Positions 17,334 to 63,900 of a stretch of DNA of 64,000 bases are shown here, one piece after another (position 1 is the stretch's first letter; each line of letters begins with the position of its first letter). The stretch is taken from contig DATLFB010000044.1 in assembly GCA_035525285.1 (NCBI GenBank), positions 108,441-172,440 on the forward strand, in the 5' to 3' direction. The stretch is from Thermoanaerobaculia bacterium. Lineage in GTDB: Bacteria; Acidobacteriota; Thermoanaerobaculia; Gp7-AA8. The notes beneath the pieces were generated by a model. That model worked only from the letters and a program-made list of their open reading frames with translations. It had not been told where the DNA came from and did not search any database. Made by a program: the position numbers and the translations under genes.

Positions 17334-17381
17334 GAGGGCGGACGTCTCGTCCGCCCTGGCGGACGGGACGTCCGCCCTCCA
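17334..17381. repeat. nested palindromic element GGAGGGCGGACGTCYCGTCCGCC-N-GGCGGACGGGACGTCCGCCCTCC
   Basis: An exact inverted repeat. Each arm is itself a palindrome. The element ends 4 nt before the kinase ATG at 17386. Further copies at 50728, 59982 and 62503 lie inside coding genes. Confidence 0.9.
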
Positions 17382-17385
17382 TACC

Positions 17386-20028
17386 ATGATCGCCGCGGGA
17401 ACCCGGCTCGGCCCCTATGAGGTCTCCGCGCGCATCGGCGAAGGCGGAATGGGCGAGGTGTATCGCGCCCGCGACTCGCGGCTCGATCGCACGGTCGCGC
17501 TGAAAGTTCTTCCGTCGCGCTTTTCCTCGAACCCGAGTCTGCGTGAGCGCTTCGAGCGCGAGGCGCGCGCGATCTCTTCGCTCACGCATCCGCACATCTG
17601 CACGCTCTACGACATCGGCAGCGACGACGGCGTCGACTTCCTGGTGATGGAGTATCTCGAGGGCGAGAGCCTCGCCGATCGCATCGAGCGCGGGCCACTG
17701 CCTGTCGAGCAGGTCATCCGCTACGGCGTCGAGATCGCGGAGGCGCTGGACAAAGCGCATCGCGCGAACATCGTCCATCGCGATCTGAAGCCGGGAAACA
17801 TCATGCTCACGAAGAGCGGCGCGAAGCTGCTCGACTTCGGGCTCGCGAAGTTTGCTTCGAACACGCCCAACGATCCGAATGCGGCCACCGCGGCGATGAC
17901 GCAGCAGAAGCCGCTCACCGAGGAAGGCTCGATCCTCGGCACGTTCCAGTACATGGCGCCGGAGCAAGTGGAAGGGCGCGACGCCGACCCGCGCACCGAC
18001 CTCTTCGCCCTCGGCGCGGTGCTCTACGAGATGGCGACCGGGAAGCGTGCATTCGAAGCGAAGAGCCGCGCGAGCCTCATCGCATCGATTCTCGATCGCC
18101 AGCCGCCGCCGATCTCGACGATCGCGCCGCTCACGCCGCGCGCGCTCGAGCGCGTCGTGCAGATGTGCCTCGAGAAGGACCCCGACAACCGCTGGCAGAG
18201 CGCGCACGACGTCGCCGCGGAGCTGAAGTGGATTCGCGACTCGAGCAGCGAGACGATCGGTCCCGGCGCGCGGCGCTCACGCAACAAACGCCTGGCGCAG
18301 GCGGGCGCGCTCGTACTCGCGGGCGTCGTCGCCGGCGGCGCGATCGCGTGGCTCGCGAAGCGCGACGCTCCACCGCCGCGGCCCGTGTCGCGCTTCACGA
18401 TCAATACCACGCCGAATGCGCCGCTTTTCATGGACCGGCGCGCGCTCGCGATCTCGCATGACGGGACGAAGATCGCGTACCTCGGCTATGAATCGAAGAA
18501 GTGGCGAATCTACGTGCGGAACGCCGGAAGCCCGGGAGCTACACCTCTGGCGGGAACGGACCGTGCGCACTCTCCGGCGTTTTCTCCCGACGGGCGATGG
18601 ATCGCGTACCTCGACAACTCGGGGTTGAAGAAGATCCCGGCAAGCGGCGGCACGCCGGTACGGCTCGCACGCGCCGACGAAAGCGGACCGGGCGTGCACT
18701 GGCTCGGAGAAACGATTTTTTACGCTCCGTCGTTCAACGGCGGCCTCTGGAGCGTTCACGAGAACGGCGGAGCTCCGAAGGAAATTGCGAAAGTCGATCC
18801 CGCGAGCGGCGTGCGCGCGCTGCTGTGGCCGCACGCATTGCCCGGCGGCGAGACGGTGCTGGCGACTGCATGGACCGGCAAGTCGTTCGACGAGGCCAGG
18901 ATCGTCGCCTACTCGTTGCGCGACGGCACGTCGCGCGTCGTGGTGGACGGCGGAGCGAGCCCGCGCTACTCGCCGACGGGACATCTGCTCTATGCACGCG
19001 GCACGAATATCCTCGCCGTACAGTTCGATCCGAAGTCGCTGAAAGTGACCGGCGCGCCCGTGACCGTCGCCACCAACGTCGCATACCACCCGATCAACGG
19101 CGATCCGCACTTCGCGCTGGCGGATAACGGCGACATGATCTTCGCTGCGGGCGGCACGATCGAGCTCAAGCACACGCTCGTCTTCTTCGATCGGAAGGGA
19201 AAGTCGACACCGATCGTCCCGACGCTACGCCCTTACTACAGTCCGGTCACCTCCGCCGACGCGAAGACCGTTGCACTGATTTTGATGAGCGTTACGTACG
19301 ACATCTGGCTCCTCGAAGCGGAGCGCGACGTGCTGACGCGTGTCTCCTTCGGCGGCGACGATGTCAGTCCCACGCTCTCGCTCGATGGCCGCTACGTGTA
19401 CTGGTCATCCGGACGTCACGGCGGTTACAGCCTCTATCGCGCGCCAACCGACGGAACCGGCGGCGAGGAGCTTCTTCTCGCGTCGAAGTACGACGACTAT
19501 GCGTCTTCGGAGGCGGCCGATCACAGTTTCCTGATCTTCAATCGTCACGATAAGGGACAAAGCGACATCTGGATGCTGCCCCTCGGCACGCGCCAGCCGC
19601 GTCCGGTGCTCGCAACGGAGCACGCAGAGTGGGCGCAGAACCTCTCCCCCGACGGGCGCTGGCTCGCCTACCGCTCGGACGAGTCGGGCCAGCACGAGAT
19701 CTACGTGCGGCCGGTCCAGGGAAACGGACCGAAGCTCCAGATATCGATCGGCGGCGCGAACGGCGGCGGGTTCACTGGCGACGGGCGGGAAGTCATCTAC
19801 CGCTCGGGCTCGAAGTTCTACGCGGTCGCAATTCAGACTTCGCCCCAGCTTCGCGCGTCGAAGCCGCAGTTTCTCTTCGAGGACAAGACGGTGGAGGGGC
19901 GCTGGGATCCCACAGCGGGCAGCAATCGCATCCTGGTCATCAAATCGGGTCCCGATCCGACGACGTCGCAGATCGAGATCGTCCTGAACTGGGCCGAGGA
20001 GCTGAAGCGGCGCGTGCCTACGCGGTGA
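17386..20028 (+). CDS. Ser/Thr protein kinase with a C-terminal TolB-like (WD40-like) beta-propeller
   Basis: Kinase motifs are present (GEGGMGEVYRA, HRDLKPGNIML, DFGLAK). The C-terminal half carries repeated PD40-like segments (SPDGRWIAY). Confidence 0.85.
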   Translation: MIAAGTRLGPYEVSARIGEGGMGEVYRARDSRLDRTVALKVLPSRFSSNPSLRERFEREARAISSLTHPHICTLYDIGSDDGVDFLVMEYLEGESLADRIERGPLPVEQVIRYGVEIAEALDKAHRANIVHRDLKPGNIMLTKSGAKLLDFGLAKFASNTPNDPNAATAAMTQQKPLTEEGSILGTFQYMAPEQVEGRDADPRTDLFALGAVLYEMATGKRAFEAKSRASLIASILDRQPPPISTIAPLTPRALERVVQMCLEKDPDNRWQSAHDVAAELKWIRDSSSETIGPGARRSRNKRLAQAGALVLAGVVAGGAIAWLAKRDAPPPRPVSRFTINTTPNAPLFMDRRALAISHDGTKIAYLGYESKKWRIYVRNAGSPGATPLAGTDRAHSPAFSPDGRWIAYLDNSGLKKIPASGGTPVRLARADESGPGVHWLGETIFYAPSFNGGLWSVHENGGAPKEIAKVDPASGVRALLWPHALPGGETVLATAWTGKSFDEARIVAYSLRDGTSRVVVDGGASPRYSPTGHLLYARGTNILAVQFDPKSLKVTGAPVTVATNVAYHPINGDPHFALADNGDMIFAAGGTIELKHTLVFFDRKGKSTPIVPTLRPYYSPVTSADAKTVALILMSVTYDIWLLEAERDVLTRVSFGGDDVSPTLSLDGRYVYWSSGRHGGYSLYRAPTDGTGGEELLLASKYDDYASSEAADHSFLIFNRHDKGQSDIWMLPLGTRQPRPVLATEHAEWAQNLSPDGRWLAYRSDESGQHEIYVRPVQGNGPKLQISIGGANGGGFTGDGREVIYRSGSKFYAVAIQTSPQLRASKPQFLFEDKTVEGRWDPTAGSNRILVIKSGPDPTTSQIEIVLNWAEELKRRVPTR

Positions 20029-21382
20029 CGCGGCCGACGAGATCGTACGGATGCGCGTCGGTGATCGTGACGCGCGCGAACGCGGGCAGCGCCTTCGGCA
20101 ACAGCTCGATGCCATCGTTGATCAGCAGTCTTCCGTCGATCTCCGGCGCCTGCCCAACGATGCGTCCCTCGAGCAGGTGCTCGGTCTCTTCGCACGCGCC
20201 GGTGATGAGCGCGTCGAACGTCTGGCCGACTCTCATCTCGTTGCGCGAGAGGGCGATCTTCTGCTGCAGCTCCATCAATTTTGCGCGACGTCTTTCGGCG
20301 GTCTTGCGCGTCGGCGTGTCCGTCATGCGCGCGGCGAGCGTCGAGTCTTCCTGCGAGTAGACGAACGCGCCCATGTTGTCGAACTGCGCCCACTCGACGA
20401 AGTCGTAGAGCTCGCCGAAGTCCTTCGGCGTCTCGCCGGGATGTCCGGTGATGAACGTCGTGCGCAGGGTGATGTCCGGCACGAGCTCGCGCATGCGCGC
20501 GATCATCTCGCGATACTCCTTCGGCGAGCCGGGGCGGCGCATGCGTCCGAGGACGTTCGCGGTCACGTGCTGGAGCGGGATGTCGCAGTACGACGCGAAA
20601 CGCGGCTCGCGGCCCATCAGCTCGAAGAGCGACCAGTCGAGCGAGCCGGGATACGCATAGAGAAAACGGATCCACCGAAAGCCGGTCTCGCGCAGCAGCG
20701 TCTCGACGAGCTTCGTCAGCCCGTTCGCGATGCCGATGTCTTCGCCGTAGCGCGTGGTGTCCTGCGCGACGAGTGCGAGCTCCTTCACGCCGGCCCGCTG
20801 CAGCGTGTGCGCCTCGCGCAGCAGCGAGTCGATGCCACGCGAGCGGAACTTGCCGCGCATCTGCGGAATCGCGCAGAACGTGCACGGATTCGAGCACCCC
20901 TCGGACACTTTCAGATACGCGTGCGCGGTGCCTTGCGTGAGCACGCGCGGGAGGTCTTCGTAAAGCCGCACCGACATCTTCCGGCGCGTTGGCGCGGCGT
21001 CATCGACGACACCCGTGACGGCTTCCGTGATCTTCTCGAGATGATCGAGGCCGACGAAGGCATCGATCTCCGGAATCGACTCCTGCAGGTCGCCGCGGTA
21101 CTTCTGGACCATGCAGCCGGTGACGATGAGACGCTCGACGCCGCGGCCCTTCTTCTCCGCGATCTCGAGGATCGTGTCGATCGATTCCTGCTTCGCCGCG
21201 TCGATGAAGCCGCACGTGTTCACGATCACCACGTCGGCCTCTTCGAGGTCGTTGGTGATGACGACGTGCCCGGCATCCGCCTGCAGCTGCCCGAGCATGA
21301 TCTCGGCATCGACGAGATTCTTGGGGCAGCCGAGGGAGATCATTCCGACACGGCGGACGCGTTCTGCGGGGACTGCGGTCAT
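20018..21382 (-). CDS. rimO: ribosomal protein S12 methylthiotransferase RimO (radical SAM MTTase with TRAM domain)
   Basis: Contains the MISLGCPKNLVDAE motif, a CxxxCxxC radical-SAM cluster (CSNPCTFCAIP), and a C-terminal TRAM domain. Confidence 0.8.
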   Translation of the reverse strand: MTAVPAERVRRVGMISLGCPKNLVDAEIMLGQLQADAGHVVITNDLEEADVVIVNTCGFIDAAKQESIDTILEIAEKKGRGVERLIVTGCMVQKYRGDLQESIPEIDAFVGLDHLEKITEAVTGVVDDAAPTRRKMSVRLYEDLPRVLTQGTAHAYLKVSEGCSNPCTFCAIPQMRGKFRSRGIDSLLREAHTLQRAGVKELALVAQDTTRYGEDIGIANGLTKLVETLLRETGFRWIRFLYAYPGSLDWSLFELMGREPRFASYCDIPLQHVTANVLGRMRRPGSPKEYREMIARMRELVPDITLRTTFITGHPGETPKDFGELYDFVEWAQFDNMGAFVYSQEDSTLAARMTDTPTRKTAERRRAKLMELQQKIALSRNEMRVGQTFDALITGACEETEHLLEGRIVGQAPEIDGRLLINDGIELLPKALPAFARVTITDAHPYDLVGRVTA

Positions 21383-21420
21383 GAGGACGGTCCAACACGG
21401 AAAAGCACCGCCTGCTTCCA

Positions 21421-21480
21421 GTCACGCAGGGGCGGGCTTCAGCCCGCCCTCGACCGGCTAAAGCCGGTCGCTACGTTTCA
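21421..21480. repeat. pair of hairpins GGGCGGGCTTCAGCCCGCCC plus GACCGGCTAAAGCCGGTC (AACGTAGCG/GCGGGCTTYAGCCCGCC family)
   Basis: Related copies occur at 49040-49075 and 56455-56486. Confidence 0.7.
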
Positions 21481-21545
21481 TCACCACCGGATCGTTGTCC
21501 GCGACCTGCACGTTTCCTGCGAATCTGCGCAGGATCGGGTATGCC

Positions 21546-22448
21546 TCATTCCTCGAGAATTTTCCAGATTTTCCCCGCACTTCCGTGCTCCAGGACATTT
21601 CGTCGCAGCGCGTGATTCATGACGATGGAGTCGAGAAGAACGAGCTCATCATCGTCGGTCGGATCGGCGAGCGTGATTCCGAGCGTGCGCGCGACTTCTT
21701 CGACCGTCCGGTCGTGCATCGCGGCGATCGATTCGGAGACCGGTTTCGCGGGATTCACTTCATGCGCGATCGCGAGCGCGTTGCCCCGGAGGATGAACGT
21801 CGCGCAGCGCTGACCGGCGAGCCACTCGAGCGCCGCGGCGAGCGTGACGAGGTGCCAGTTGCGGTGCCGGCGATAGAGCTTCGCGATTCCTCGATTGCGC
21901 TCGCCGGCGGGCTTGTAGACGTTCGGCTGCACTTCCCAGATCAGCGCGACGCCGTGCGCGCTGTCGAACGTGCCCGACGTCTCGCCGACGGATCCGGGGA
22001 TCGTGTGCTGCTGCCCCTCGCTCTGTCCGATCGCGATCGCGTCCTCGAGCTCGCGCGCGACGACGTCGAAGGAGATGGTCTCCGCGCGCCCGCCGAAGTG
22101 CGCGTTGCGTCCGAGGACCAGGATGCCGCGATCCGCGTCGCGCAGAGGAATCGCGGCGCCCGATGCGCGTCCTTCCGCTTCGCGCGGATGCCACAGGCTC
22201 GCCGTCGGCTTTCCCGCGAGCCACAGAGGATGATTACGGCGCAGAAAGCGTTCGACCACACGCGCGCGAATCGTCAGCGTGTCTTCAGGCCGCAGCTCGG
22301 CGACGGATGCCGCGTCCTCGGCGATGTCGGAAAACACCTCGAGGACCTCGTCGCCCAGCCCGAGGTAGAGGTCGTAGAGCGCAGCCTTGGTCGCGGGTTG
22401 GACGCCGTGGGTGTTGAGGATGCGGTCGATGTGAGAGGGGAAAGGCAT
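21546..22448 (-). CDS. conserved hypothetical protein, 300 aa
   Basis: A long ORF in the same orientation between rimO and dusB. No motif recognised. Confidence 0.5.
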   Translation of the reverse strand: MPFPSHIDRILNTHGVQPATKAALYDLYLGLGDEVLEVFSDIAEDAASVAELRPEDTLTIRARVVERFLRRNHPLWLAGKPTASLWHPREAEGRASGAAIPLRDADRGILVLGRNAHFGGRAETISFDVVARELEDAIAIGQSEGQQHTIPGSVGETSGTFDSAHGVALIWEVQPNVYKPAGERNRGIAKLYRRHRNWHLVTLAAALEWLAGQRCATFILRGNALAIAHEVNPAKPVSESIAAMHDRTVEEVARTLGITLADPTDDDELVLLDSIVMNHALRRNVLEHGSAGKIWKILEE

Positions 22449-22540
22449 CAGCGATGAACGATGAACGATGAACGATGAACGATGAATTATGAACGATGAA
22501 TGACGTGCGATCGTTCATCGTTCATCGTTCATCGTCATGC
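22447..22540. repeat. mirror tandem-array hairpin of the GATGAAC/GTTCATC unit family (second copy of the 2657-2749 family)
   Basis: gatgaacgatgaacgatgaacgatgaac...cgttcatcgttcatcgttcatcgtcat. Confidence 0.9.
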
Positions 22541-23551
22541 CGCGATCCGTAGCCGCGCCTCGTCCAGCAACCGCTGCACATCCGAAACCGCGGCAATGTC
22601 CTGCAGCCCCATCCGGATGTCCTTCCCGTGCGGGATGCCTTTCGAGAACCACCCGATCACCGTGCGCGCCTTGTGGAGCTTCCACTTGTCGATCTGCGGG
22701 GCGGCGTCGATCTTCGCGAGATAGCGCTGCATCGCGTCGATGCGGCGGTCGATCTCGTTGTGGAGGACAGGCAATCCTGCCTGTCCGGACGGGCAGGATT
22801 GCCCGTCCTCCACATGCGCGTGAATATCTCGGAAGATGAACGGATTGTGCAGCGCGGCGCGGCCGATCATCACGCCGTCGACACCCGTGGTCTCGAACAT
22901 GCGCAGCGCATCCGCGGGCGACTTCACGTCGCCGTTGCCCCACACCGGAATCGTCAGCTCGCTCTTCACGCGGGCGATGTAGCTCCAGTCGCTCGCGCCG
23001 GTGTAGGCCTCGTTGCGCGTGCGGCCGTGAATCGCGATCGCGGCGACGCCGATCTCTTCGAAGCGCTTCAGCAGCGGGATGACGTCATCGCTCTCCCACC
23101 CCTTGCGCACTTTCACCGTGACCGGGATCTTCACCGCGGCCTTGATCTTCTCCACCACGCGCGCGGCTTTGTCGAAGTCCTTGAGCAGCGCCGATCCCGC
23201 GCCGCTGTTGACGATCTTGCGGACCGGGCAGCCCATGTTCACGTCGACGATGTCGACGCCCTCGGCCTCGACGATCGCGGCCGCGTCGTCCATCCGCTCC
23301 GGATCGCCGCCGTAGATCTGAATCGCGACCGGACGCTCGCTCTCGTTGAAGGCGAGCATCTGATGGCTGCGATCGTTCTTCCGCGTCAGCCCCTCGGCCG
23401 AGACGAACTCGGACACGACGAGTCCCACGCCGCCGAGCTCCTTGATCAGCGACCGGTAATACGTGTCGGTGACCTCGGCCATCGGGGCGAGCGCCAGCGG
23501 CGAGTCGATGTGGACGCCGCCGATCGAGAACGAACGCTTCAGATATTCCAT
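22535..23551 (-). CDS. dusB: tRNA-dihydrouridine synthase (DusB-like)
   Basis: Contains LAPMAEVTD, VAIQIYGGDP, and VDVNMGCP, matching the FMN-binding TIM barrel. Confidence 0.85.
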   Translation of the reverse strand: MEYLKRSFSIGGVHIDSPLALAPMAEVTDTYYRSLIKELGGVGLVVSEFVSAEGLTRKNDRSHQMLAFNESERPVAIQIYGGDPERMDDAAAIVEAEGVDIVDVNMGCPVRKIVNSGAGSALLKDFDKAARVVEKIKAAVKIPVTVKVRKGWESDDVIPLLKRFEEIGVAAIAIHGRTRNEAYTGASDWSYIARVKSELTIPVWGNGDVKSPADALRMFETTGVDGVMIGRAALHNPFIFRDIHAHVEDGQSCPSGQAGLPVLHNEIDRRIDAMQRYLAKIDAAPQIDKWKLHKARTVIGWFSKGIPHGKDIRMGLQDIAAVSDVQRLLDEARLRIAA

Positions 23552-23598
23552 CCTGGAACCGAGTTTAACGTCGGCGGCAGGAGTTACAATCCCGGCTC

Positions 23599-24153
23599 AT
23601 GCGTAAGCTCATCCTCGCCACTACCCTCGTCCTCGCCGCCTCCACCGCCAGCGCCGTGACCGTCGCCGGCGCAAACATCGAAGACTCCGTCAGCGTCAAC
23701 AACCAGAATCTCGTGCTCAACGGCGCTGGACTGCGCAAGAAGTTCGTGGTCAAGGTCTACGTCGGCGCGCTCTACCTGCCTTCAAAGCAGACGAACGCGG
23801 CCGCGATCATCGCCGCCGACACGCCGCGCCGCATGGTCATGCACTTCGTGTACGACGTCGAGAAAGGCAAGATCGCCGAGGCGTGGGGAGAGGGACTGAC
23901 CGCGAACACGCCGAACGCGTCGCCGGAAGTGAAGACCGCGTTCAAGACCCTCGCCTCGTGGATGGAGGACATGAAGGACGGTCAGCGCATCACGATGACC
24001 TACGTCCCCGGCATCGGCACGACCGTCGAGGTGAACGGAAAGAGCAAAGGCACCCTCGGCGGAAAAGCCGTCGCGGACGCGATCCTGAACACGTGGATCG
24101 GCCCGAAGCCGGGCCCGGGCGGGGATTTCAAGAAGGGCGTGCTGGGGCAGTAG
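23599..24153 (+). CDS. chalcone-isomerase-like (CHI-like) family secreted protein
   Basis: A signal peptide is followed by VLNGAGLRKKFVVKVYVGALYL, typical of bacterial CHI-like proteins. Confidence 0.65.
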   Translation: MRKLILATTLVLAASTASAVTVAGANIEDSVSVNNQNLVLNGAGLRKKFVVKVYVGALYLPSKQTNAAAIIAADTPRRMVMHFVYDVEKGKIAEAWGEGLTANTPNASPEVKTAFKTLASWMEDMKDGQRITMTYVPGIGTTVEVNGKSKGTLGGKAVADAILNTWIGPKPGPGGDFKKGVLGQ

Positions 24154-25123
24154 TCCGCGCGCGCAGTCCCTTCTCCCCGCCACGCGGAGAGAAGGTGGCC
24201 CTGAGCGAAGCGAAGGGCCGGATGAGGCGCCCCTCACCCTGGCCCTCTCCCCGCACGCGGGGAGAGGGGACTGGGGGTCGCCACGAAGAACACCTTCGCC
24301 CGAGGATCGCGACGCGCTCGCCGCCGATCTTCGCCCCACCGTGGAACGCCGATTGGAAATCGGCGTTCCTCTCCGGCCGGCAGACGAAGAACATCTTCAC
24401 CCGATCCGATTCGACCCATTCCTGGTCGTGATACGGATCGAAGTCGATCACGTCCACCGGCGTCAGTTGCGCTTCGGCGAGCGAGGAGACGATCTCCCGC
24501 TCGCTGTACGCGCGCTGGCGATGCTGCTCGCGGATCGCGATGCGCTCGCCGCCGATCTTCGCCCATCCGGTCACCATCGCCTTCGCGATCTTCTCGCGCG
24601 CGCGGTACGACGTCGCCATCTCGAGGTGAAAGTCCGGACCGTCGGCGATGAACGGATCGGCGATGCCCCAGATCGCGGGGTAGATGTCGGGATGGTTCAT
24701 GTCGAAGAGCAGCAGCGAGTCGTGGTCCATCACGCCGCGCATCGCGCGGAATGCGGCCACGAGCTCGTTGCGGTCGAGCAGATGATTGAGGCTGTCGTAC
24801 AGACAGGTGATGCGCGCGAAGCGCCGACGCAGCGGCAGGGCGCGGAGATCCGCCGCGATCACCTGTGGCGCGCGCGTGCGCGCGAGCCGTAGCATCGGCA
24901 GCGACGCGTCGATGCCGACGGACATCCAGCCCCGCTCGCGAAACCAGCGCAGCGCGAGTCCCGTTCCGCACGCGACGTCGAGATGCGTGCGTTTCGCCGT
25001 CGGATATTTCGCGAGCACCTGCTCGAGCGTGGCGCGGACAGCCTTGAAGAAACGCTCGCCGAGGGACTGGTCGTACGCGTAGGCAAACGCGCCGTAGGCT
25101 TCACCAGCGGTAGAAGCCTTCAC
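24128..25123 (-). CDS. class I SAM-dependent methyltransferase
   Basis: Contains LDVACGTGLALRWF (motif I) and LLLFDMNHP. The ORF-track start at 25465 is a spurious extension across hbd. The GTG at 25123 overlaps the hbd stop by 23 nt, so the true start and the true C-terminal end are both uncertain (an internal direct repeat and hairpins complicate the end). Confidence 0.55.
   Translation of the reverse strand: MKASTAGEAYGAFAYAYDQSLGERFFKAVRATLEQVLAKYPTAKRTHLDVACGTGLALRWFRERGWMSVGIDASLPMLRLARTRAPQVIAADLRALPLRRRFARITCLYDSLNHLLDRNELVAAFRAMRGVMDHDSLLLFDMNHPDIYPAIWGIADPFIADGPDFHLEMATSYRAREKIAKAMVTGWAKIGGERIAIREQHRQRAYSEREIVSSLAEAQLTPVDVIDFDPYHDQEWVESDRVKMFFVCRPERNADFQSAFHGGAKIGGERVAILGRRCSSWRPPVPSPRVRGEGQGEGRLIRPFASLRATFSPRGGEKGLRARTTAPARPS
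24172..24290. repeat. two tandem GC-rich hairpins (CTCTCCCCGC-ACGCGG-GGAGAG type)
   Basis: cccttctccccgccacgcggagagaagg and ccctctccccgcacgcggggagagggg. They lie in the convergent 3' region of the CHI-like and methyltransferase genes. Confidence 0.7.
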
Positions 25124-25946: not shown

Positions 25947-25965
25947 GAAGGGGGAGTCTATCTCG

Positions 25966-26074: not shown

Positions 26075-26077
26075 CCT

Positions 26078-27687: not shown

Positions 27688-27729
27688 AGGTCAGCGTGTA
27701 AACCACCGGCAGCGTACCATATGTTCCGC

Positions 27730-27810
27730 GGGTTGCCCGGTAACCCGGTTGCCCGGTTTCCCAGTGTGTTTTTCTCCGGGCAACCGGGCGACTGGGCAAC
27801 CGGGCAACCA
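27730..27810. repeat. octamer mirror-array element (CCGGTTGC/GCAACCGG family)
   Basis: gggttgcccggtaacccggttgcccggtttcccagtgtg...ccgggcaaccgggcgactgggcaaccgggcaacc. Confidence 0.85.
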
Positions 27811-27814
27811 CACC

Positions 27815-30226: not shown

Positions 30227-30227
30227 G

Positions 30228-30322
30228 AGGTTCGAGGTTCGAGGTTCGAGGTTCGAGGTCAGAATGAAGAGGCAGTCTCTCTCTTCATTCGTCCTTCGAA
30301 CCTCGCACCTCGAACCTCGGCT
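30228..30322. repeat. mirror tandem-array hairpin: (GAGGTTC)x5, a spacer, then GAACCTC units
   Basis: gaggttcgaggttcgaggttcgaggttcgaggtc...ccttcgaacctcgcacctcgaacctcgg. Confidence 0.9.
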
Positions 30323-30328
30323 TCTAGC

Positions 30329-31120: not shown

Positions 31121-31212
31121 TCCCGGTTGCCCGGTTGCCCGGTTGCCCGGTTGCCCGGTAGCCCGGTAAGCGGCACACTGGGAAACCGGGCGACTGGGCA
31201 ACCGGGCAACTC
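31121..31212. repeat. octamer mirror-array element (CCGGTTGC/GCAACCGG family), in the opposite orientation to the copy at 27730
   Basis: cccggttgcccggttgcccggttgcccggttgcccggtagcccggtaagcggcacactgggaaaccgggcgactgggcaaccgggcaac. The core cacactggg here is the reverse complement of cccagtgtg at 27760. Confidence 0.85.
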
Positions 31213-50456: not shown

Positions 50457-51272
50457 TCAGCGACCGACTCCCTGTGACGTTTCGGTCGCTTCTTTTTTCT
50501 TCTCTTTTGCATGTTGCCGCGCGGCGTCGACGAATGCCCCGAACAACGTCGAGGCGCTGCCCTCCCCGCTCATGTCCTCCGGGTGCCACTGCACGCCGAC
50601 GTAGAACGGATGCCGCGGGTCCTCGAGCCCTTCGATGATGCCGTCGGGCGCGTGCGCGGTGACGGTCAGGCCCTCGCCGACGCGGCCGATGGCCTGATGG
50701 TGCGAGGAGTTCACGTTGAGCTCGAGAGGAGGGCGGACGTCCCGTCCGCCGTCGCCCAGGCGGACGGGACGTCCGCCCTCCATTCCGCCGAGGATCTTCG
50801 CCAGCTTCGTGCCGCCCTCGATGATCACGTCGTGCCGCGCGCGGTCTTCCGGCACGCTGGCGTGCGCGATCTCCGTTTCGACCTGCGCGGCGATGTCCTG
50901 CACGAGCGAGCCGCCCGCGGCGACGTTCATGACCTGCACGCCGAGGCAGATGCCGAGGACGGGGATGCCGCGGTCGCGCGCGGCTTTCGCGAGGGAGACG
51001 TCGTTGCTCTGGCGGCGCGGGTCCATCGGCTCGACCGTGGGATGGCGGTCTTCGCCGTACAGCGCGGGGTCGCAGTCGTCGCCTCCCGCGAGCAGCACGC
51101 CGTCGAGCTCGCTCACGAGCTCAGCCGCGTTCTCGGGCTGCGGCGGGATGAGCACAGGAATCGCGCCGGCGCGCCGCAGCGCGTCGACATAGGTGAGATA
51201 GATGAAGGCACGCTCGCGCTTGCCTGGCGGGCTCTGGACGTCGGATCCGATTCCGATGATGGGCTTGATCAT
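50457..51272 (-). CDS. gamma-glutamyl-gamma-aminobutyrate hydrolase family protein (peptidase C26, class I glutamine amidotransferase-like)
   Basis: Contains GICLGVQ (Cys nucleophile) and HHQAIGRVG...VGVQWHPE. An in-frame copy of the 54-bp nested palindrome sits at 50728-50781. Confidence 0.75.
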   Translation of the reverse strand: MIKPIIGIGSDVQSPPGKRERAFIYLTYVDALRRAGAIPVLIPPQPENAAELVSELDGVLLAGGDDCDPALYGEDRHPTVEPMDPRRQSNDVSLAKAARDRGIPVLGICLGVQVMNVAAGGSLVQDIAAQVETEIAHASVPEDRARHDVIIEGGTKLAKILGGMEGGRPVRLGDGGRDVRPPLELNVNSSHHQAIGRVGEGLTVTAHAPDGIIEGLEDPRHPFYVGVQWHPEDMSGEGSASTLFGAFVDAARQHAKEKKKEATETSQGVGR

Positions 51273-52319: not shown

Positions 52320-52340
52320 GACGTGCGATAATCGCTCGCG

Positions 52341-52919: not shown

Positions 52920-52930
52920 CCCTGACGTTC

Positions 52931-55247: not shown

Positions 55248-55405
55248 TTGCCGGCGAGTCTAACGCGGTGCGCGCGGCGCCGCGCGGCGTCGCATCCACG
55301 TTTTACGTTTCTTACGAAGTTCTTGCGACGTCATGAAGTTCCCGGCGCGCGATGAGGCCATATTGCGATGCATCCGAAACGGGACAAACGAAAGGAAACG
55401 AAAAC

Positions 55406-55873: not shown

Positions 55874-55948
55874 ACTTCACGGCAATCGTGCGGGCGGCGG
55901 CCGATCGACGCGGATGGCCGCCGCCCGAACGAGGCAGGCATAGACACC

Positions 55949-56458: not shown

Positions 56459-56459
56459 A

Positions 56460-56805
56460 ACGTAGCGGCGGGCTTTAGCCCGCCTACGGGGCCGACCGGC
56501 TGAAGCCGATCGGAGATCGGCGGACCGGCCGACTGAAAGTCGGCGTTCCGTTTTCGAGTAGCGCGGCCTTCCAGGCCGCCGTGTCGCTGGCTTCCAGCCA
56601 GCGATGTCGCCGGCAGGATGCCGGCGTTACGGCGGGCAGGATGCCCGCGCTACAACTCCCGCTTGGGCAACGGTCATGGAACGCCGACATGCTGTCGGCC
56701 GGTCCGCCGACTTCCAGTCGGCGGGTTTTGACGCCGATCGGAAATCGGCGGACCGGCCGACTGAAAGTCGGCGTTCCGTTTCGAGAAAAAGGTAGGCGGT
56801 CGCTA
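56460..56805. repeat. hairpin-dense non-coding region with two direct copies of about 55 nt
   Basis: GCCGATCGGA(G/A)ATCGGCGGACCGGCCGACTGAAAGTCGGCGTTCCGTTT occurs at 56506-56556 and 56733-56790. At least five more stem-loops lie between them. One (ccgccgacttccagtcggcgg + gttttg) looks like a terminator. Confidence 0.8.
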
Positions 56806-56810
56806 CGTTC

Positions 56811-57701
56811 TCACGCGCGTTTCTTTTTCTTCATCGCCGCGCGTTTGCTCGCGCGGCGCGGCGGCTTGCGGGCGGCCGTGCCGCCGCCGAGGGAGCGGCT
56901 GAGGACGGCGAGGAGATCGACGACTTCCGCGCCCGGCTCTTCCGGCTTCATGCCTTCCGGCGCGCGGATCACGTCCTCGCCCTTGCGTTGCTTCGCGGCG
57001 ACGAGCTTCTCGAGCCGCTCCTCATAGTCGTCGAGCAGCTCCCCCGGATCGAGCTTGCGCGACTTCTTCGCGATCTGGCTCTCGAATTTCTTCACGTCCG
57101 CGGCCGTCGCCTTCGCTTTCTTCGGCAATCCGATCTGCTCCGGCGTGCGGACTTCGTCGTGGAAGCGCAGCGTCTCCGCGCGCAGGATCCCATCCTCGGC
57201 CAGGATCGCCACGAGATACTCCTTCGCGCGCATCACGAACGTCGCGATGCCCGCGTATCCCTTCTTCTCCATCACTTCGGCGAGCAGTCGATACGCTTTG
57301 TTCGAGCCGCCGGAGGGAACGAGGAAATAGCCGCGCTCGAAGTAAACGGGATCGAGCGCATCGGCATCGACGAAGAGCTGCAGATCGATCTCGCGCGACT
57401 TGCGCGGCTCGATCGCCTCGAGCTCTTCATCCGTGACGACGACGTACTTGTCCTTCTCGATCGCGTAGCCGCGCACGATGTCGTCCGCGTCGAGCTCCTT
57501 CTCGTCTTTCGAACAGATGTAGCGCCGCTCGACCGTCGCGCCGTCGGGTCCGACCATGCGCAGCGCGGTGCCGCCGGAACGCGTCGCGGCGTAGAGCGCG
57601 ACGGGAACGGTGACCAGGCCGAACGTGATCGTGCCGGTCCAGAACGAGCGAATGCCGCCCGGTGCGCTGCCTTCTTCGACGTCTTCGAGCTCCTCAGCCA
57701 T
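56811..57701 (-). CDS. ku: Ku protein (non-homologous end joining)
   Basis: FWTGTITFGLVTVPVALY matches the Ku core, with a Lys-rich C-terminal tail. Confidence 0.85.
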   Translation of the reverse strand: MAEELEDVEEGSAPGGIRSFWTGTITFGLVTVPVALYAATRSGGTALRMVGPDGATVERRYICSKDEKELDADDIVRGYAIEKDKYVVVTDEELEAIEPRKSREIDLQLFVDADALDPVYFERGYFLVPSGGSNKAYRLLAEVMEKKGYAGIATFVMRAKEYLVAILAEDGILRAETLRFHDEVRTPEQIGLPKKAKATAADVKKFESQIAKKSRKLDPGELLDDYEERLEKLVAAKQRKGEDVIRAPEGMKPEEPGAEVVDLLAVLSRSLGGGTAARKPPRRASKRAAMKKKKRA

Positions 57702-58482
57702 GTTTCCTCTTTCCCGCGCCCGCGAGACTCGCCTCGAGGACGTCGGCGAGCTGCTCTTCGCGCTTCGGCTTCCGCGGGCGGAAGACTTTCATCTTCACCT
57801 TCCCACCCTCGGCCTTCGTTTCGACGAGCTCCATCACCCGCGCGCGGTACTCATCCCGATATTGCGAGGGATCGAGCTCGCCGTGCAGCGCTTCGAGCAG
57901 CTGCGCGGCCATGTCGAGCTCGCGCTTCTGCATCGGACGTCCGCCCGGCGGCTTCAGCGCGTCGGCGGCGATGATCTCGTCCGCGTGCCGCAGGACGATG
58001 AGCATCAGATGGCCCTCCTCTTCGCGCAGCGCACCCGCGTACGCGCGGTCGCGCATCACCCACTTCGCGATCGCCTGTTTGTTTTTCTTCCTCAGCGCCT
58101 CGGCGAGCGCAAAGTAGGCCTTCGTGTTGCCGTCGGGTCCGAGGTAGTACGCGCGCTCGTACCAGCGTTGATCGACGTCCGCGGGATCGACGAAACGCGT
58201 GATCGCGATGTCGCGCGATTCTTCCGGCTCGAGCGTTTCCAGCTCCTCGTCCTCGAGGACGACCATCCGCCCGCGCGACACCGGATACGCTTTCCTCACC
58301 TCGGCGTACTCGACCGGCTTGCCGCTCTCCGAGCTCACGAGTTGCTGCTTGACGGGTTGCTTGTCGGTCTTGTGCAACAGGCGGAAGTGCACCGTGCGAT
58401 CGGTGACTCCGGAGTAGAGCTTCACCGGCACCTCGATCGAGCCAACATGAATGACGCCTTTCCACATCGCGCGTGCGGCCAT
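57694..58482 (-). CDS. ku: Ku protein, second paralog; its stop overlaps the first Ku start by 8 nt
   Basis: MAARAMWKGVIHVGSIEVPVKLY is the Ku N-terminus. I chose the ATG at 58482. The ORF-track start at 58584 runs into a palindromic element. Confidence 0.8.
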   Translation of the reverse strand: MAARAMWKGVIHVGSIEVPVKLYSGVTDRTVHFRLLHKTDKQPVKQQLVSSESGKPVEYAEVRKAYPVSRGRMVVLEDEELETLEPEESRDIAITRFVDPADVDQRWYERAYYLGPDGNTKAYFALAEALRKKNKQAIAKWVMRDRAYAGALREEEGHLMLIVLRHADEIIAADALKPPGGRPMQKRELDMAAQLLEALHGELDPSQYRDEYRARVMELVETKAEGGKVKMKVFRPRKPKREEQLADVLEASLAGAGKRKHG

Positions 58483-58514
58483 GCCGAGGATCATTGCAAA
58501 TGGAACGCCGCCTG

Positions 58515-58592
58515 TGTGGAGTGCGGCGACGCCAGTCGCCGCTTCTCTACGCGCATACAACAGCGGCGACTGGCGTCGCCGCACTCCACATC
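58515..58592. repeat. MITE-like element with terminal inverted repeats of about 30 bp (TGGAGTGCGGCGACGCCAGTCGCCGC...GCGGCGACTGGCGTCGCCGCACTCCA)
   Basis: The same inverted repeats, with a longer internal spacer, occur at 476-590 between the ABC ATPase and permease genes. Confidence 0.85.
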
Positions 58593-60765
58593 ACTTCACC
58601 CAGATCCGCGAACTGTCCCGCCTGCCCTGCGCGTCGATCGCCGTAATCACGTGCATGCCGGGCGCGAGCGGCCACTCGAGCGAGCCGCCGGGCGATGACG
58701 AGCCGATGCGGCGGTCGTCGATGTGCCAGGCGACGCGCGTCGCGGCAAGCGCGCGGAGGCGCAGGGTCTGGAACTCGCTGCGCAGCGTGGGATCGATCAG
58801 GTACGTCGCGCCGTCCGGCGGATTTGCGATCTCGAGCGGAGCGCGGTGCATCGTCGCGGTCTGCGCGCGCTGCGGCGGCAGCCAGCCGCGATATTCGGCG
58901 GGCCAGTCGATCCAATGGTCGTGATGCCACGAACAGAATCGCGGCGCGGCGTCGACGGGCAGCCATTCCTTGCGCAGCGAGTCGCACCACTGCGTCGGAC
59001 GCGCACCGGAGAGCGCGCAGATCTCGACGGACTCGACATCGGCAGTCGGCGCGACGATCGGCGTCGAGTCGCCGATGGGCAGCGTGCCCCGCGCGCGTTT
59101 CATCGCCGCGAGCATCACCGCGTGAAAGACCGGCGCGGCGCCGGTGACGCCGGTCGAGCCGCGCAGCGGCCGCAGGTCGAAGTTGCCGACCCACACGCCG
59201 ACGGTGACGTCTTTCGTGTAGCCGATCGTCCAGTTGTCGCGATACGACTGCGAGGTTCCCGTCTTCACGGCGACGGGAAACGGGAAGTCGAGACTGCCGC
59301 CGGTGCCGAAGGCGTAGGCGCGCGCTTCGGGGTCGGCGAGGATGTCGGTGATCCAGAACGCGGTGCGCTTCGCGAAGGGTTGCCCGGTTGCCCGGTTGCC
59401 CGGTTGCCCGGCGAAGAGTGAATAGGCTTTGACGAGTTGCTCTAAGGTCACCTCGGCGTCGCCGAGTGTCAGGCCGAGGCCGTAGTAGTCCGCGGTGCGC
59501 TGCAGATCCGTGAATCCCGCGTTGCGCAGCAATCGCAGCAGCGCCTCGGGGCCGAGTTTCGAGAGCATCGCTACCGCGGGGACGTTCTGCGATCCCGCGA
59601 GCGCCGCGCGGATGCGGAGCGGGCCGCGATAGCGGCCGTCGTAGTTGCGCGGCGAGTAGACGATGCCTTCCTCGGCGGTCGGGAAGTGCGAGGGAACATC
59701 GGCGAGGACGGTCGCGGGCGTCTCGCCGCTCTCGAACGCGAGTGCGTACGTGAACGGCTTCAGCGCCGATCCCGGCTGGCGCGGCGTGGTGACGCCGTCG
59801 ATCGCACCGCCGAAGCCCTCGCCGAAGTAGTCGCCGGAGCCTTCCCATGCGAGCCACTCGCCGCTCGCGTTGTCGAGCACGGCGACCGCGACGCTCGACG
59901 CGCCGTGGCGGAGGAGCTCTTTCCTGTGCGCGTCGATGATGCCGATGACGTCGCGTTGCAGGTCTGCGTCGAGCGTGGTGAGGAGGGCGGACGTCTCGTC
60001 CGCCCCGCGGGGGGCGGACGAGGACGTCCGCCCTCCAAGGACACGCTCGACGAAGTGCATCGCCAGCACGGGCTGCGCGCCGCGCACGAACCGCAAGCGC
60101 TCCGCGCGCGCGAGCGCGAGCTCCTGCGGCGTCAACTGCATCCGCGCGAGCACGTGCAGTTGCCTCGCGCGCGCGCGCTGCGCGTCGCGCCGCGGATTGA
60201 ACGCGCCCGGCCGCTGCGGCAGCGACGCGAGAAACGCGGCCTGCGCGGGCGTGAGGTTCTCCGGCGCGCAGCCGAAGTACGCGCGGCTCGCGCGCGCGGC
60301 GCCGGTGATGCGGTTTCCGTACGGCGCGAGGTTGAGGTACATCGCGAGGATCTCGCGCTTCGTGTAGCGATGTTCGAGCCGGAGGGCGACGACGCTTTCG
60401 CGCCACTTCGAGCGCAGCGAGCGGTCGCGCGATTGCAGGATCAGCTTCGCGACCTGCTGCGTGATCGTCGAGCCGCCTTCGACGACGCGCATCGCGCGCA
60501 CGTTGTGTGCCGCGGCGCGGGACACCGCAATCGGATCGATGCCGATGTGCGAGAAGAATCGCCGATCCTCGGCCGCGAGCGTCGCGTCGACGATGCGCGG
60601 AGGGAGCGCATCCGCGCTCAGCCATTCCGTCCGGTTGCCGCTCGCGCCGAGGGACTCGTAGAGGACTTCGCCGTGACGGTCGACGATCGTGACGTGACGC
60701 GGAGTTTCGATGTGCGGGATCGGGCCGAGGCGGAGCCACGCCACGAACGCGATCACCGCTGTCAT
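58591..60765 (-). CDS. pbpC: penicillin-binding protein 1C (GT51 transglycosylase, transpeptidase, PbpC C-terminal domain)
   Basis: Contains EDRRFFSHIGIDP...GGSTITQQVAK (GT51) and a transpeptidase core. It lies directly downstream of the alpha-2-macroglobulin gene. Start placed at MTAVIAFV (60765). In-frame repeat copies sit at 59378-59411 and 59982-60036. Confidence 0.85.
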   Translation of the reverse strand: MTAVIAFVAWLRLGPIPHIETPRHVTIVDRHGEVLYESLGASGNRTEWLSADALPPRIVDATLAAEDRRFFSHIGIDPIAVSRAAAHNVRAMRVVEGGSTITQQVAKLILQSRDRSLRSKWRESVVALRLEHRYTKREILAMYLNLAPYGNRITGAARASRAYFGCAPENLTPAQAAFLASLPQRPGAFNPRRDAQRARARQLHVLARMQLTPQELALARAERLRFVRGAQPVLAMHFVERVLGGRTSSSAPRGADETSALLTTLDADLQRDVIGIIDAHRKELLRHGASSVAVAVLDNASGEWLAWEGSGDYFGEGFGGAIDGVTTPRQPGSALKPFTYALAFESGETPATVLADVPSHFPTAEEGIVYSPRNYDGRYRGPLRIRAALAGSQNVPAVAMLSKLGPEALLRLLRNAGFTDLQRTADYYGLGLTLGDAEVTLEQLVKAYSLFAGQPGNRATGQPFAKRTAFWITDILADPEARAYAFGTGGSLDFPFPVAVKTGTSQSYRDNWTIGYTKDVTVGVWVGNFDLRPLRGSTGVTGAAPVFHAVMLAAMKRARGTLPIGDSTPIVAPTADVESVEICALSGARPTQWCDSLRKEWLPVDAAPRFCSWHHDHWIDWPAEYRGWLPPQRAQTATMHRAPLEIANPPDGATYLIDPTLRSEFQTLRLRALAATRVAWHIDDRRIGSSSPGGSLEWPLAPGMHVITAIDAQGRRDSSRIWVK

Positions 60766-60925
60766 CCCGAGCGCAGCGAGGGACCTGGGGGTCAGGGCGG
60801 CGCGAGCACGGCGCCACCCGCCCGCCCGGGTCCCTCGCTCACGCTCGGGATGACGTGGGGTCACTTCTCCACCTCCACCGGGGTCACTTCTCCACCTCCA
60901 CGTGGGGTCACTTCTGCACCTCCAC
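60761..60925. repeat. SLTLGMT-family palindrome (60761-60854) followed by 3 tandem copies of a GGGGTCACTTCTCCACCTCCAC unit of about 23 bp (60855-60925)
   Basis: gtcatcccgagcgcagcgagggacc...ggtccctcgctcacgctcgggatgac, then gtggggtcacttctccacctccaccg repeated three times. Confidence 0.85.
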
Positions 60926-63900
60926 CGTCACCGTGCCCGTCCTTCCGAATACCTCCGGCTCGTACATTTCCTCCGCGTGCGTCGGGGCGGTGATGAAAGT
61001 GCCCGCGGTCGTGGCGCGCACGAGGTACGAGTATTCGTGCTCGCCTTCGCCGAGGCGGGTGGCGAAGAGGTTGACGCGATCGTCGTGGCGCTCGACGTGA
61101 TCGAAGCCGCCGCGCTCCCACCAGGTCCACCAGTCGCCGCCCCCGTCCGACCGCATCTGCGTTTCCGCGAGCTGCGCAGCGGTCGTCGCGAACCACGTTT
61201 CCACCGGCTCGGTGCCCGCGGGAATCGGATCGGTCACCGCGACGTAGCGGCGCTCCTTCGTGTTGCGGATGCGCAGCGTGACGAGGATCAGATCGCCCGC
61301 CTTGAACGTCGTCGACGGTTCGCCGCCGCTCTGCAGCGCGTACGAACGCTCGACGCGGAAACCGCTGTCGAGCGCCTGCAGGCACTGGATGTTTCGCGCG
61401 TAGCGCAGCCGCAGCATGTAGAAGAGCGTGCCCGTGCCTTCGCGCGTGAAGACGACGGGAAGCGTTCCGCTGCGACGCAGCACGTCCTGCATCGAGAACT
61501 CTTTCCGCCTCGCCTCGGTCGAGCGGCCCTTGAACGTCTCGGTCGCGATCGTTTCGGTTCCGAGCGCAACGGTCGCGACGAAGTCGGGGATCTCTGACTC
61601 GTACTTGCGGTAGTAGTCGACGAGCGCTTCCATCGCCCACGCGTTTTCCTGCGTGTTGCCCCACCGCCCTTCCTTCCGCACGCGCATCATCCAGCGCACC
61701 ATGCGCTTCACCATCTCTTCTTCGGATCCATGACGCACCAGCGTGCCGAGAGTCATCGCGGTCGAGCGCACGTTCGAGTTCCAGAACCAGAGCAGATACG
61801 GATCGCTGAGCTCGTTCACGAACGCGTGTCCTCCCTCGGGGAGGATCGAGTTCATGATGCGGCGCTTCAGATCCGTCACGCGCGGACCGCTCGTCTCCTT
61901 TTTGGCAATCATCGCGTCGAGTAGATGCGTGAGTCCGAACACCGGCATCCGATCGCGATACTCGTAGATGCGATTGAGGTTGCTGTCGACGTTGCGCCCG
62001 CCCTCGGCGAGCACCTTCAGCGCGAACGCCTGCCACGCGTTGTATGCCGGACGCCACCCCTCGTTGTTCGGCGGCGCCTGTCCAAGGACTCCTTCGAGGA
62101 ACGCGTAGGCCCGATCCATCATCGTCTGGTCGACGCGATAGCCGAGCTTCGCGCCGCGCTGGAAGACGTGCATCACGTAGCTCGTGAGATACGGCGGGGA
62201 CGGACCCCAGCACTCGCCCGGCCAGAACGAGAACCCGCCGTCGCCGCACTGGAACTTGCGCAGCTCGTCGAGATTCGTCTGGACGGCCTCTTTTTGTTTG
62301 GCCGGATCGATTCCCGGCAGCGAGAACGCATCGCCGAGATCGGTGACGAGCATCAACGCCAGCGCGCGCGACGAGCGCTGCTCCGCGCAGCCGTACGGAT
62401 ACTCGACGAGATACTGCGCGCCTTCGGCGAGACCGACCATCGCGGTCGACGAGAGATCCACGCGCAATCCGCCGAAGCCGGGAACGACGTCCGTCGGAAT
62501 CTGGAGGGCGGACGTCCCGTCCGCCAAGCGGACGGGACGTCCGCCCTCCGGGACTTCGCCATACGCGGCAACGGTCTCCGGCGACACGATCACGCGCACC
62601 GGGATCACGTCTTCGAACGCGTCGGCCTCGCGCCCCATCTTCACGCGCATGCGAATGCGCGCGACGCCGACGCTCTTCGCTTCGGCATCGAAGCGGACTT
62701 CGTTTGCGGAGCCGGGCTTCACGTCGACCGTCGAACTGCCACCGATCGCGATCACGTTCGGATCGAGCGACTCGATCGTGACAGTCGCCTTGCCGCCCTT
62801 TTTGAGCTGGTTGTGCACGACCGCGCCGAAATGCGCTTTGTCGCCGGCGGTGAGGAACCGCGGCCAGGCCGGCGTGAGCATCAGCGGCTTGTTGACGCGG
62901 ATCTCGTTCGACGCCCAGCCGAAGCGCGACTCGCGGTCGCCGGCAACGGCCATGATGCGATACGTCGTGAGCGACTCGGGGAGCGTGACTTCGGTGCGCG
63001 CGCGGCCCTTCGCATCGGTGATGAGCGATCCGAGCCAGAACGCGAGCACGCGGAAGTCCTTGCGCACCACGCCCGGACCCGCGTCGCGTCCGCCGCCACC
63101 GCCCTCGCCCCCACCCTTCGGCGTGAGCACGCGGCGGCTGACGATGCGCTGGCGCGAGTCTTCGTTCGCGACCTGCAACGCCTTGTCGAGATAGATCGAC
63201 TCGAGCACGTCGGGCGTCCTGTAGTTCGTCAGCGACAGCACGCCGTAGTCGACGGCCCACAACGTGACCTCCGACTGCGATGGCTTGCCGCCCGCGTCGC
63301 GCACGTTGACTTCGATCTTCGCCTTCGACGCGGGACGGAACTCGTCGCGATCGGCTTTCACGTTCACGGCGAGACGCTTCGATGCGTCTTCGACCTGCAA
63401 TTCGACATAGCCGAGGCGGAACGCGGGCTTGCCGGGATCGCTGCCGTCCTTCCCATCATTAATATCCGGATCTTTCTTCGTGCGTCCTTTGACGAGCAAC
63501 ACCGAGACGAACACGTTCGGGATGTCGCGCTCGGTGAGCGGCACGCTCACCGTTTGCTGCGTCGAGGTCAGCGTGAATGTCGTCCACGTGCGGACGCCTT
63601 CGCGCTCGGTGGTGAGCAGCGCGGTCGCCGTTTCCCACGGCGACTTGATCATGATCCGCGCGGTCTCGCCGGGGCGATACGTCGTCTTTTCGGGCACGAG
63701 ATCGATGCGGTTGTGATCGAAGCGCTCCCAGGCGGTGTAGCCCTCGCCGAGGGCGTAGAAGCCGACGCGCGTCGTCGTCGAGCGCCCGGCGTTCTCCGCG
63801 TGCCCGATGATCACGTAGCGGCCGCCTTCCTTCAGCGGGATGTGCAGCGGCACGGGCTTCGTCTCGCTGGTGATCGTCCACTCACCCGCGGGAATCTCTT

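Follow-up and report, generated by a model that had tools for sequence, protein, structure and literature searches.

A 64-kb stretch of the genome of a soil Thermoanaerobaculia bacterium (Acidobacteriota; GenBank assembly GCA_035525285.1, contig DATLFB010000044.1, positions 108,441 to 172,440; all 64,000 nucleotides are referred to here as the window) carries four copies of a nested palindrome of about 50 bp: one between two genes and three within genes. The intergenic copy (17333-17380, 48 nt; GGAG GGCGGAC GTCTC GTCCGCC / CT / GGCGGAC GGGAC GTCCGCC CTCC) occupies most of a 69-nt spacer between a gene for a LuxR-type response regulator (16675-17316, + strand, TAA at 17314-17316) and one for a Ser/Thr protein kinase with PD40 repeats (17386-20028, + strand, ATG at 17386); it starts 17 nt past the TAA and ends 5 nt before the ATG. 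The genic copies all lie in genes on the minus strand. The first (50728-50781, 54 nt, arms and spacer 23+8+23) is in a gene for a 271-aa Peptidase_C26 or class I glutamine amidotransferase resembling gamma-glutamyl-GABA hydrolase (50457-51272; Pfam PF07722, E 8e-58), the second (59982-60036, 55 nt, 23+8+24) in pbpC, encoding the 721-aa penicillin-binding protein 1C (58591-60756; Pfam Transgly, Transpeptidase and BiPBP_C), and the third (62503-62549, 47 nt, 23+1+23, with 1 mismatch) in a gene for a bacterial alpha-2-macroglobulin (60908-64000; Pfam A2M_BRD, A2M, TED and bMG10, with PDB matches to YfhM/ECAM), which runs off the window so that only the C-terminal 1027 aa are encoded here. The C26 product is 100% identical to a protein (P0001) from a Thermoanaerobaculia metagenome-assembled genome (MAG) at NCBI, and the pbpC product likewise to MAG protein P0121.

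A first-pass annotation of the window, made from its sequence alone, had reported these four palindromes and had held that the genic ones are translated in frame without breaking the open reading frame (ORF). All four were found again, three at exactly the coordinates given and the intergenic copy one base away (17333-17380 rather than 17334-17381), and all three genic copies are indeed read through with no stops. In the protein they appear as M-EGGRPVRLGDGGRDVRPP-L in the C26 hydrolase, L-GGRTSSSAPRGADETSALL-T in pbpC and P-EGGRPVRLADGTSAL-Q in the alpha-2-macroglobulin (A2M), an example of a peptide across an insert being EGGRPVRLGDGGR; among the three, the element is translated in two different frames. 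None of the four doublets contains a stop codon in any of the six frames, and therefore any insertion with a net length that is a multiple of three keeps the ORF open. Since the three host proteins are unrelated to each other by Pfam, paralogous domains are not the cause of the shared DNA.

Judged by its sequence, each palindrome is a head-to-head dimer of a 23-nt, GGAG-tagged hairpin of the repetitive extragenic palindromic (REP) type. The unit consists of the GGAG tag followed by a GGCGGAC / GTCYC / GTCCGCC hairpin, with a G+C stem of 7-8 bp and a loop of 3-5 nt, dimensions that fall within the size range used for REPs (20-40 bp unit, stem 5-13 bp, loop 2-20 nt). Two such units stand inverted, head-to-head and with the tags outside, in 4 of 4 window copies, and GGAG adjoins the stem directly in 8 of 8 window arms as well as in every partner unit at the loci from other genomes described below. 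A search with the half-unit GGAGGGCGGACGTCCCGTCCGCC (23 nt), allowing up to 3 mismatches, returned seven arms with 0-1 mismatch in the window and no match in 100 dinucleotide-preserving shuffles; the eighth arm, the right arm of the pbpC copy, has a 1-nt insertion in the loop (GTCCTC). Within the window, to which our copy counts of GGAG dimers apply, there are thus eight units in four dimers where none was expected. Between copies each arm differs by 0-1 nt, and the arm spacers (CT, GTCGCCCA, CCGCGGGG and A; 2, 8, 8 and 1 nt) show no likeness in length or sequence. As RNA, a single unit folds at -14 kcal/mol, so that each arm can fold alone, and the dimers form helices of 22-24 bp at -51 to -61 kcal/mol (z about -8 to -9); the intergenic dimer folds at -51.7 kcal/mol (z -8.6) and has a G-U pair on the transcribed strand. 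No direct repeats of the kind left by target-site duplication were seen in the flanks of the four copies. An Rfam scan of the window gave no match at gathering thresholds, a permissive scan of 17250-17450 gave generic hairpins far below threshold only, and a full-text literature search with the sequence strings of the element returned unrelated primers only.

Alignment to orthologs supports the proposal of the first-pass annotation that the palindromes are mobile insertions into unrelated genes, and neither alignments nor Pfam point to the two things that would have spoken against it, an ancestral conserved segment or a paralogous domain. In the C26 hydrolase, exactly 19 residues at the element are missing from 12 of 12 orthologs (79-95% identical), and at the DNA level an empty site is present in two orthologous contigs, for a net gain of 57 nt. 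In pbpC, the segment is missing from the closest ortholog (83% identical) and from all other aligned orthologs but one; the gain is a net 13 aa (39 nt), and it falls in the linker, variable in length, that joins the Transgly domain (aa 71-243) to the Transpeptidase domain (aa 326-584). The one exception (protein P0127, on contig L020, a syntenic Thermoanaerobaculia contig) carries a stem-variant doublet at the same linker position: a 47-nt dimer (L020:6192-6238) of GGAG GGCGGGC GTCYC GCCCGCC twice, in frame as VGVSPAWRAGRPPS. The C26 and A2M genes of L020 are empty at the corresponding sites. In the A2M gene the element is missing from 16 of 16 aligned orthologs, that of L020 included; 18 residues stand in place of the 10 found in the closest 9 of the 16 (L020 again among them), for a net gain of 8 aa (24 nt) at a site about 40 residues upstream of the thioester motif YPYGCAEQ. 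Modelling of the host structures, which the first-pass annotation had suggested, was carried out for the C26 hydrolase with AlphaFold (AF2), the model from 60 sequences reaching a predicted local distance difference test score (pLDDT) of 78 and an earlier one from 13 close sequences being unusable (pLDDT 43): the insert is predicted to be a coil with pLDDT <50, lying between a helix at 156-162 and a strand at 183-189. By these alignments, the three genic copies are lineage-specific insertions in a loop or variable linker.

These insertions are young, because the arms differ by 0-1 nt while the host proteins diverge by 5-28% from their insert-free orthologs. The net gains of 57, 39 and 24 nt (C26, pbpC and A2M) do not equal the element lengths of 54, 55 and 47 nt, and therefore host bases were lost or the junctions were remodelled, although the same 5-28% divergence in protein limits how finely changes at the junctions can be resolved. 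The pbpC linker is also not the only place in which more than one repeat is found at one position. A GTGG-tagged palindrome of 56 nt (22759-22814; TGTGGAGGACAGGCAATCCTGCCTGTCC followed by its reverse complement, with no spacer) lies in a Dus ORF (22535-23551, - strand), where it contributes the in-frame peptide VEDGQSCPSGQAGLPVLH between the TIM barrel and the C-terminal domain. At the insert, distant orthologs fall short by about 10 aa, and in the 81%-identical ortholog P0361 this junction is occupied by another repeat-like insert, VGPALSRSEPAGEPALREPAGEPALR. The occurrence of different variants at the same permissive site (pbpC linker, Dus junction) is thus a feature of this clade, and the 64 kb hold four repeat-derived dimers in frame, three of them GGAG-tagged and the fourth the GTGG dimer of Dus.

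The 23-nt unit is not confined to this genome. In a scan of one genome per species, the exact 23-mer was found, among the matches listed, at more than 16 loci of other genomes: MAGs of Caulobacterales/Caulobacteraceae, Akkermansiaceae/Verrucomicrobiae, another Thermoanaerobaculia, Anaerolineales and Obscuribacterales, and the isolate Labrys okinawensis. Leaving the isolate aside, the MAGs that contain it come from at least five other phyla or classes. The units there are usually single hairpins; otherwise they face a stem-variant unit across 0-60 nt (GGAG CGCGGGC GTCCC GCCCGCG; GGAG CGCGGAC ...; GGAG AGTGGAC ATCTT ...), such facing pairs being present at 9 of 16 loci from other genomes. At eight or more of these loci the stop codon of a long ORF lies no more than 25 nt upstream of the unit, and single units stand 3-25 nt past stop codons at L002, L006, L007, L013, L014, L015 and L016. 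Sites of the form GGAG-N7-GTCYC-N7 in 370 kb of fetched DNA had at most one stem mismatch in 58 of 64 cases, with six different fully complementary stem pairs; this count is biased, the loci having been fetched by patterns that already fixed both stems, and independent evidence comes only from the partner units, which those patterns did not target. In the same 370 kb no GTAG-tagged unit with this loop turned up, and a GTGG-tagged one only once. The dimer form is corroborated, on a contig assembled independently, by L021, a JGI metagenome contig and the sole match of a metagenome scan for same-stem dimers: the same dimer lies between atpA and atpG, 11 nt before the atpG start.

Several further occurrences are worth recording. 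In IMG/VR, 18 contigs contain members of the family, one of them with tandem arrays: on L037, which is labelled viral, head-to-tail arrays with a period of about 36 nt lie at 171-468, 1150-1244 and 4430-4632, composed of CGCGGGC GTCYC GCCCGCG hairpins with GGAC, GGAA or GGAG tags. A BLAST search of PLSDB plasmids with the element gave four weak partial matches and was uninformative. At the Verrucomicrobia loci (L009:5924-6029 and L014:3523-3600, Akkermansiaceae MAG) the unit always comes right after a TAA and reads TAAGGAGG..., a perfect Shine-Dalgarno-like string, and at two loci of one MAG the likeness extends about 40 nt into the flank, so that the repeat there may be longer than the unit. 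As a general explanation of GGAG, a Shine-Dalgarno sequence was set aside: in the dimers the tag is engaged in base pairing, and the units are found behind stop codons, not at the spacing from a start codon at which such a sequence would act.

The anatomy of the family is like that of REPs, of bacterial interspersed mosaic elements (BIMEs) and of REP doublets forming hairpins (REPINs), because it combines a short G+C hairpin that has a tag at its foot with coexisting stem variants, a position behind ORFs and inverted dimers. REPs of more than 80 species in 8 phyla have been sorted into GTAG- and CGTC-tagged superfamilies (Di Nocera, De Gregorio, Rocco 2013, PMC3733652), and the canonical ones have GTAG or GTGG 0-2 nt from a stem of 7-20 bp with a loop of 2-5 nt (Quentin et al. 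2018, PMC6006769). The GTAG superfamily comes closest to the present family, with which it shares single units just downstream of ORFs and coexisting stem variants. Its intragenic singles and dimers also encode 7-30 residues in unrelated proteins, presumably in loops or linkers, as here; among the intragenic REPs listed, over half are dimers or groups encoding 20-30 residues, which were argued to sit in flexible loops or linkers, and intragenic dimers are known from Opitutus terrae, Pseudomonas, Stenotrophomonas and others (PMC3733652). From the peptides WHGRPAR, GTGVPPV, HGRDARAT and TGGTPVP in Additional file 3 of that paper we infer that the GTAG-19 repeat of O. terrae reads GTGG CACGGGC GTCCC GCCCGTG; so derived, it has, like the window unit and its CGCGGGC variant, a 4-nt tag, a 7-bp G+C stem and the 5-nt loop GTCCC. 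The GTAG-17 dimers of the same species, like those of the window, have their tags outside; their units lie only 1-2 bp apart (PMC3733652). The differences from the GTAG REPs of that survey are the GGAG tag, an Acidobacteriota host not reported there, the location of 3 of the 4 copies in genes, and the absence from the window of a REPtron or REP-associated tyrosine transposase (RAYT). The GGAG tag is mentioned in neither paper (0 occurrences in PMC3733652; likewise absent from PMC6006769). The GGAG-tagged Thermoanaerobaculia unit is thus newly described, whereas in-frame intragenic REP dimers as such have already been described in other bacteria.

Other classes of repeat are more distant. In REPINs, where dimer and spacer replicate as one unit, the spacers are generally longer and conserved, whereas those in the window are 1-8 nt and differ between copies, so that the alike spacers by which a REPIN is recognised are lacking. 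What REPINs (Bertels and Rainey 2011, PMC3116915) have in common with the window dimers is the arrangement of two inverted REPs in one long hairpin, a dispersed distribution and a presumed mobilisation in trans by a single-copy HUH/Y1 enzyme. REPIN-RAYT systems have been portrayed as vertically inherited and lineage-specific; the present unit is found across phyla. The first-pass annotation had compared the palindromes to Rickettsia palindromic elements (RPEs), and the likeness holds in one respect: both are palindromes that sit in frame in unrelated genes and add a surface peptide without breaking the ORF. Family membership does not follow, the window element being a dimer of REP-type hairpins. 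RPEs were reportedly described by Ogata et al. in 2000, and RPE-1 is said to be about 100-150 bp long and A+T-rich; compared with RPEs by description only, the window unit is 23 nt, G+C-rich and GGAG-tagged, and its dimers, at 47-55 bp, do not match RPE-1 in length; at that level no relationship in sequence is apparent. RPE-4 and RPE-6 have since been re-filed as CGTC-type REPs (PMC3733652), a class rejected for the present unit, CGTC units beginning their stem with two A/T positions and carrying a CCA tail (PMC3733652). The hairpins associated with class 3 TnpA(Y1) (Quentin et al. 2018, PMC6006769) are likewise high-copy repeats with a 5' tetranucleotide foot in Acidobacteria and Planctomycetes; that foot is CnGA rather than GGAG, and we set them apart by description. 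REP-like hairpins with other feet do occur in Acidobacteria, and the roughly 600 class 3 hairpins of Solibacter usitatus (PMC6006769) show that the phylum hosts REP-like systems. CRISPR, integron attC sites, Xer/dif sites and inteins were dismissed on anatomy.

Taken together, these observations make it likely that the GGAG units are a dispersed, non-autonomous mobile family of REP type that has recently landed in one spacer and three genes of this Thermoanaerobaculia genome. Mobilisation would proceed, as proposed for REPs and REPINs, as a single-stranded DNA hairpin acted on in trans by a RAYT-like HUH/Y1 transposase encoded elsewhere in the genome, and the copies would have come to rest, not long ago, in the intergenic spacer and the three coding genes. 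The genic copies would persist for three reasons: they have no stop codon in six frames, their net length change is a multiple of three, and they lie in a tolerant surface loop or inter-domain linker, which now has 15-19 Gly/Arg/Pro/Ser-rich residues. At the RNA level, the stable hairpin may, like other REPs, influence how the mRNA of the host genes decays or is translated. The lack of a target-site duplication fits transposition of the HUH rather than the DDE type.

Several observations weigh against this reading. The tag is GGAG and not the GT[AG]G of canonical RAYT-associated REPs (PMC6006769); other REP families in the same window do carry the GTGG tag. Three of the four window copies are genic, whereas REPs are mostly extragenic. 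Neither a Y1/HUH domain nor any other transposase domain was found in the roughly 51 ORFs of the window, and tblastn with nine RAYT/TIRYT proteins (from PMC3733652) gave no match in the window or in 39 fetched loci. Because neither the length nor the sequence of the spacer is constant among the four dimers, these are not simple replicas of one master REPIN. Finally, the junctions are imprecise, as the net gains given above indicate, whereas HUH transposition is normally precise. Given the non-canonical tag, the dissimilar spacers and the imprecise junctions, the route might instead be one of repair or gene conversion, or the enzyme one that is not a canonical RAYT.

The first of these alternatives would need no dedicated transposase: templated repair or gene conversion would use other copies of the hairpin-prone REP DNA to fill breaks or stalled forks, with a preference for sites that already hold a repeat or similar sequence. 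The junctions look like replacements (27 nt by 51 nt in A2M, and a net gain of 39 nt for the 55-nt element in pbpC), as such copying would leave them, but with orthologs 5-28% diverged and sites that vary in length, the imprecision may be later remodelling. The dissimilar spacers also speak for it, and CGTC-type REPs have been reported without a dedicated transposase (PMC3733652). The pbpC linker, with its different stem variant in L020, and the Dus junction, with its different repeat-like insert in the 81%-identical P0361, could be read as sites that attract repeats, but recurrent occupation may simply mirror the small number of sites that tolerate an insertion. What the proposal hardly accounts for is the presence of exact 23-mers across phyla, which is difficult to explain without a sequence-specific agent, and we consider it unlikely.

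A second possibility is that the copies have been retained for use, as RNA hairpins that stabilise or attenuate transcripts or are targets of RNase III, or as functional peptide loops: domesticated elements, then, and not neutral passengers. The hairpins are extremely stable, the intergenic copy has its G-U pair on the transcribed strand, intergenic copies lie 5-11 nt upstream of start codons (that at 17386 in the window, and in L021), and REPs are known to stabilise upstream mRNA and affect translation (literature summarised in PMC6006769). For the genic copies, however, the orthologs function without inserts, the host proteins are unrelated, the peptides differ by reading frame and the C26 insert is modelled as a disordered loop; no insert was seen to be conserved across lineages. 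We regard domestication as a rather improbable account of the family. It is more improbable again that the elements are miniature inverted-repeat transposable elements (MITEs), with 23-nt arms serving as terminal inverted repeats for the DDE transposase of a full-length insertion sequence. Perfect inverted termini, small size and dispersal are what a MITE would have, but target-site duplications are present at 0 of 4 copies, no more than 1-8 nt lie between the arms, a search of the window ORFs found no transposase, and each arm makes a full hairpin of its own, which in other genomes stands alone or faces different partners at variable distance. An origin of the shared segments in ancestral coding sequence, or in a protein motif common to paralogs, is refuted by the ortholog alignments: the segments are missing from all aligned orthologs of the three genes but one (P0127/L020, which has a different stem variant), and the same DNA is read in different frames and also lies between genes.

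The window contains other repeats besides the GGAG family and the Dus palindrome. A third family of hairpins, GTGG-tagged (TGTGGAGT GCGGCGAC GCCA GTCGCCGC), forms head-to-head dimers at 58515-58590 and 472-591, the former starting directly after the pbpC stop and the latter ending 3 nt from the FecCD stop, both canonical positions for REPs; the 56-nt spacer of the dimer at 472-591 contains another hairpin. Many intergenic spacers hold 4-7 tandem heptamers or octamers followed by an inverted run, which gives long hairpins. These arrays lie at 2654-2752, 5943-6070, 7596-7661, 22452-22535, 27731-27809, 30227-30319 and 31122-31211, and also at 1523-1607; their units, among them (AACGATG)n/(CATCGTT)n, (AAGGTAA)n, (CGTGCTG)n, (GAGGTTC)n and (GGTTGCCC)n, vary by spacer, and one unit recurs at two or more sites. 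The octamer (GGTTGCCC) of these intergenic arrays is also present 4.2 times inside pbpC (59378-59411), where it encodes GQPGNRATGQP in a transpeptidase-domain loop that varies in length; the orthologs are unrelated in sequence there and have other lengths.

Near pbpC, the last 24 nt or so of the A2M gene, stop codon included (GTGGAGGTGCAGAAGTGACCCCAC), are present three times in tandem (60853-60927), and after this tandem, just upstream of the pbpC start, there is an imperfect hairpin with 29-nt arms (60775-60839). In the spacer upstream of the first Ku gene, a composite palindrome of 100 nt (56678-56777) combines the hairpins CGCCGAC ATGCT GTCGGC and GCCGAC TTCCA GTCGGC with inverted copies. 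Three small hairpins (CCTTCTCCCCGC cac GCGGAGAGAAGG; CCCTCTCCCCGC ac GCGGGGAGAGGG; GTGGAACGCCGATT gga AATCGGCGTTCC) cluster at 24169-24371, towards the 3' end of a long methyltransferase ORF, in a part that has no domain and may in fact be intergenic.

With these insertions, Acidobacteriota (Thermoanaerobaculia) join the lineages whose proteins are known to incorporate REP-type hairpins, with clean empty-site evidence for three genes in one 64-kb stretch. The GGAG tag, together with a unit that is exactly the same in distant phyla, conflicts with the view that REP/RAYT systems are species-specific and passed on vertically. We can tentatively imagine, though with considerable doubt, that the GGAG hairpin is a single REP lineage across phyla (Acidobacteriota, Verrucomicrobiota, Alphaproteobacteria, Chloroflexota and Melainabacteria-like cyanobacteria) that has spread with a mobilising enzyme other than a GT[AG]G-reading RAYT, and that in Thermoanaerobaculia coding insertion is frequent enough to supply new protein loops regularly. 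The recurrent variants at the pbpC linker and the Dus junction bear on whether existing hairpins are targeted or insertions are filtered by selection. For annotation there is also a warning: Gly/Arg/Pro-rich "low-complexity loops" in the proteins of such MAGs can be repeat insertions.

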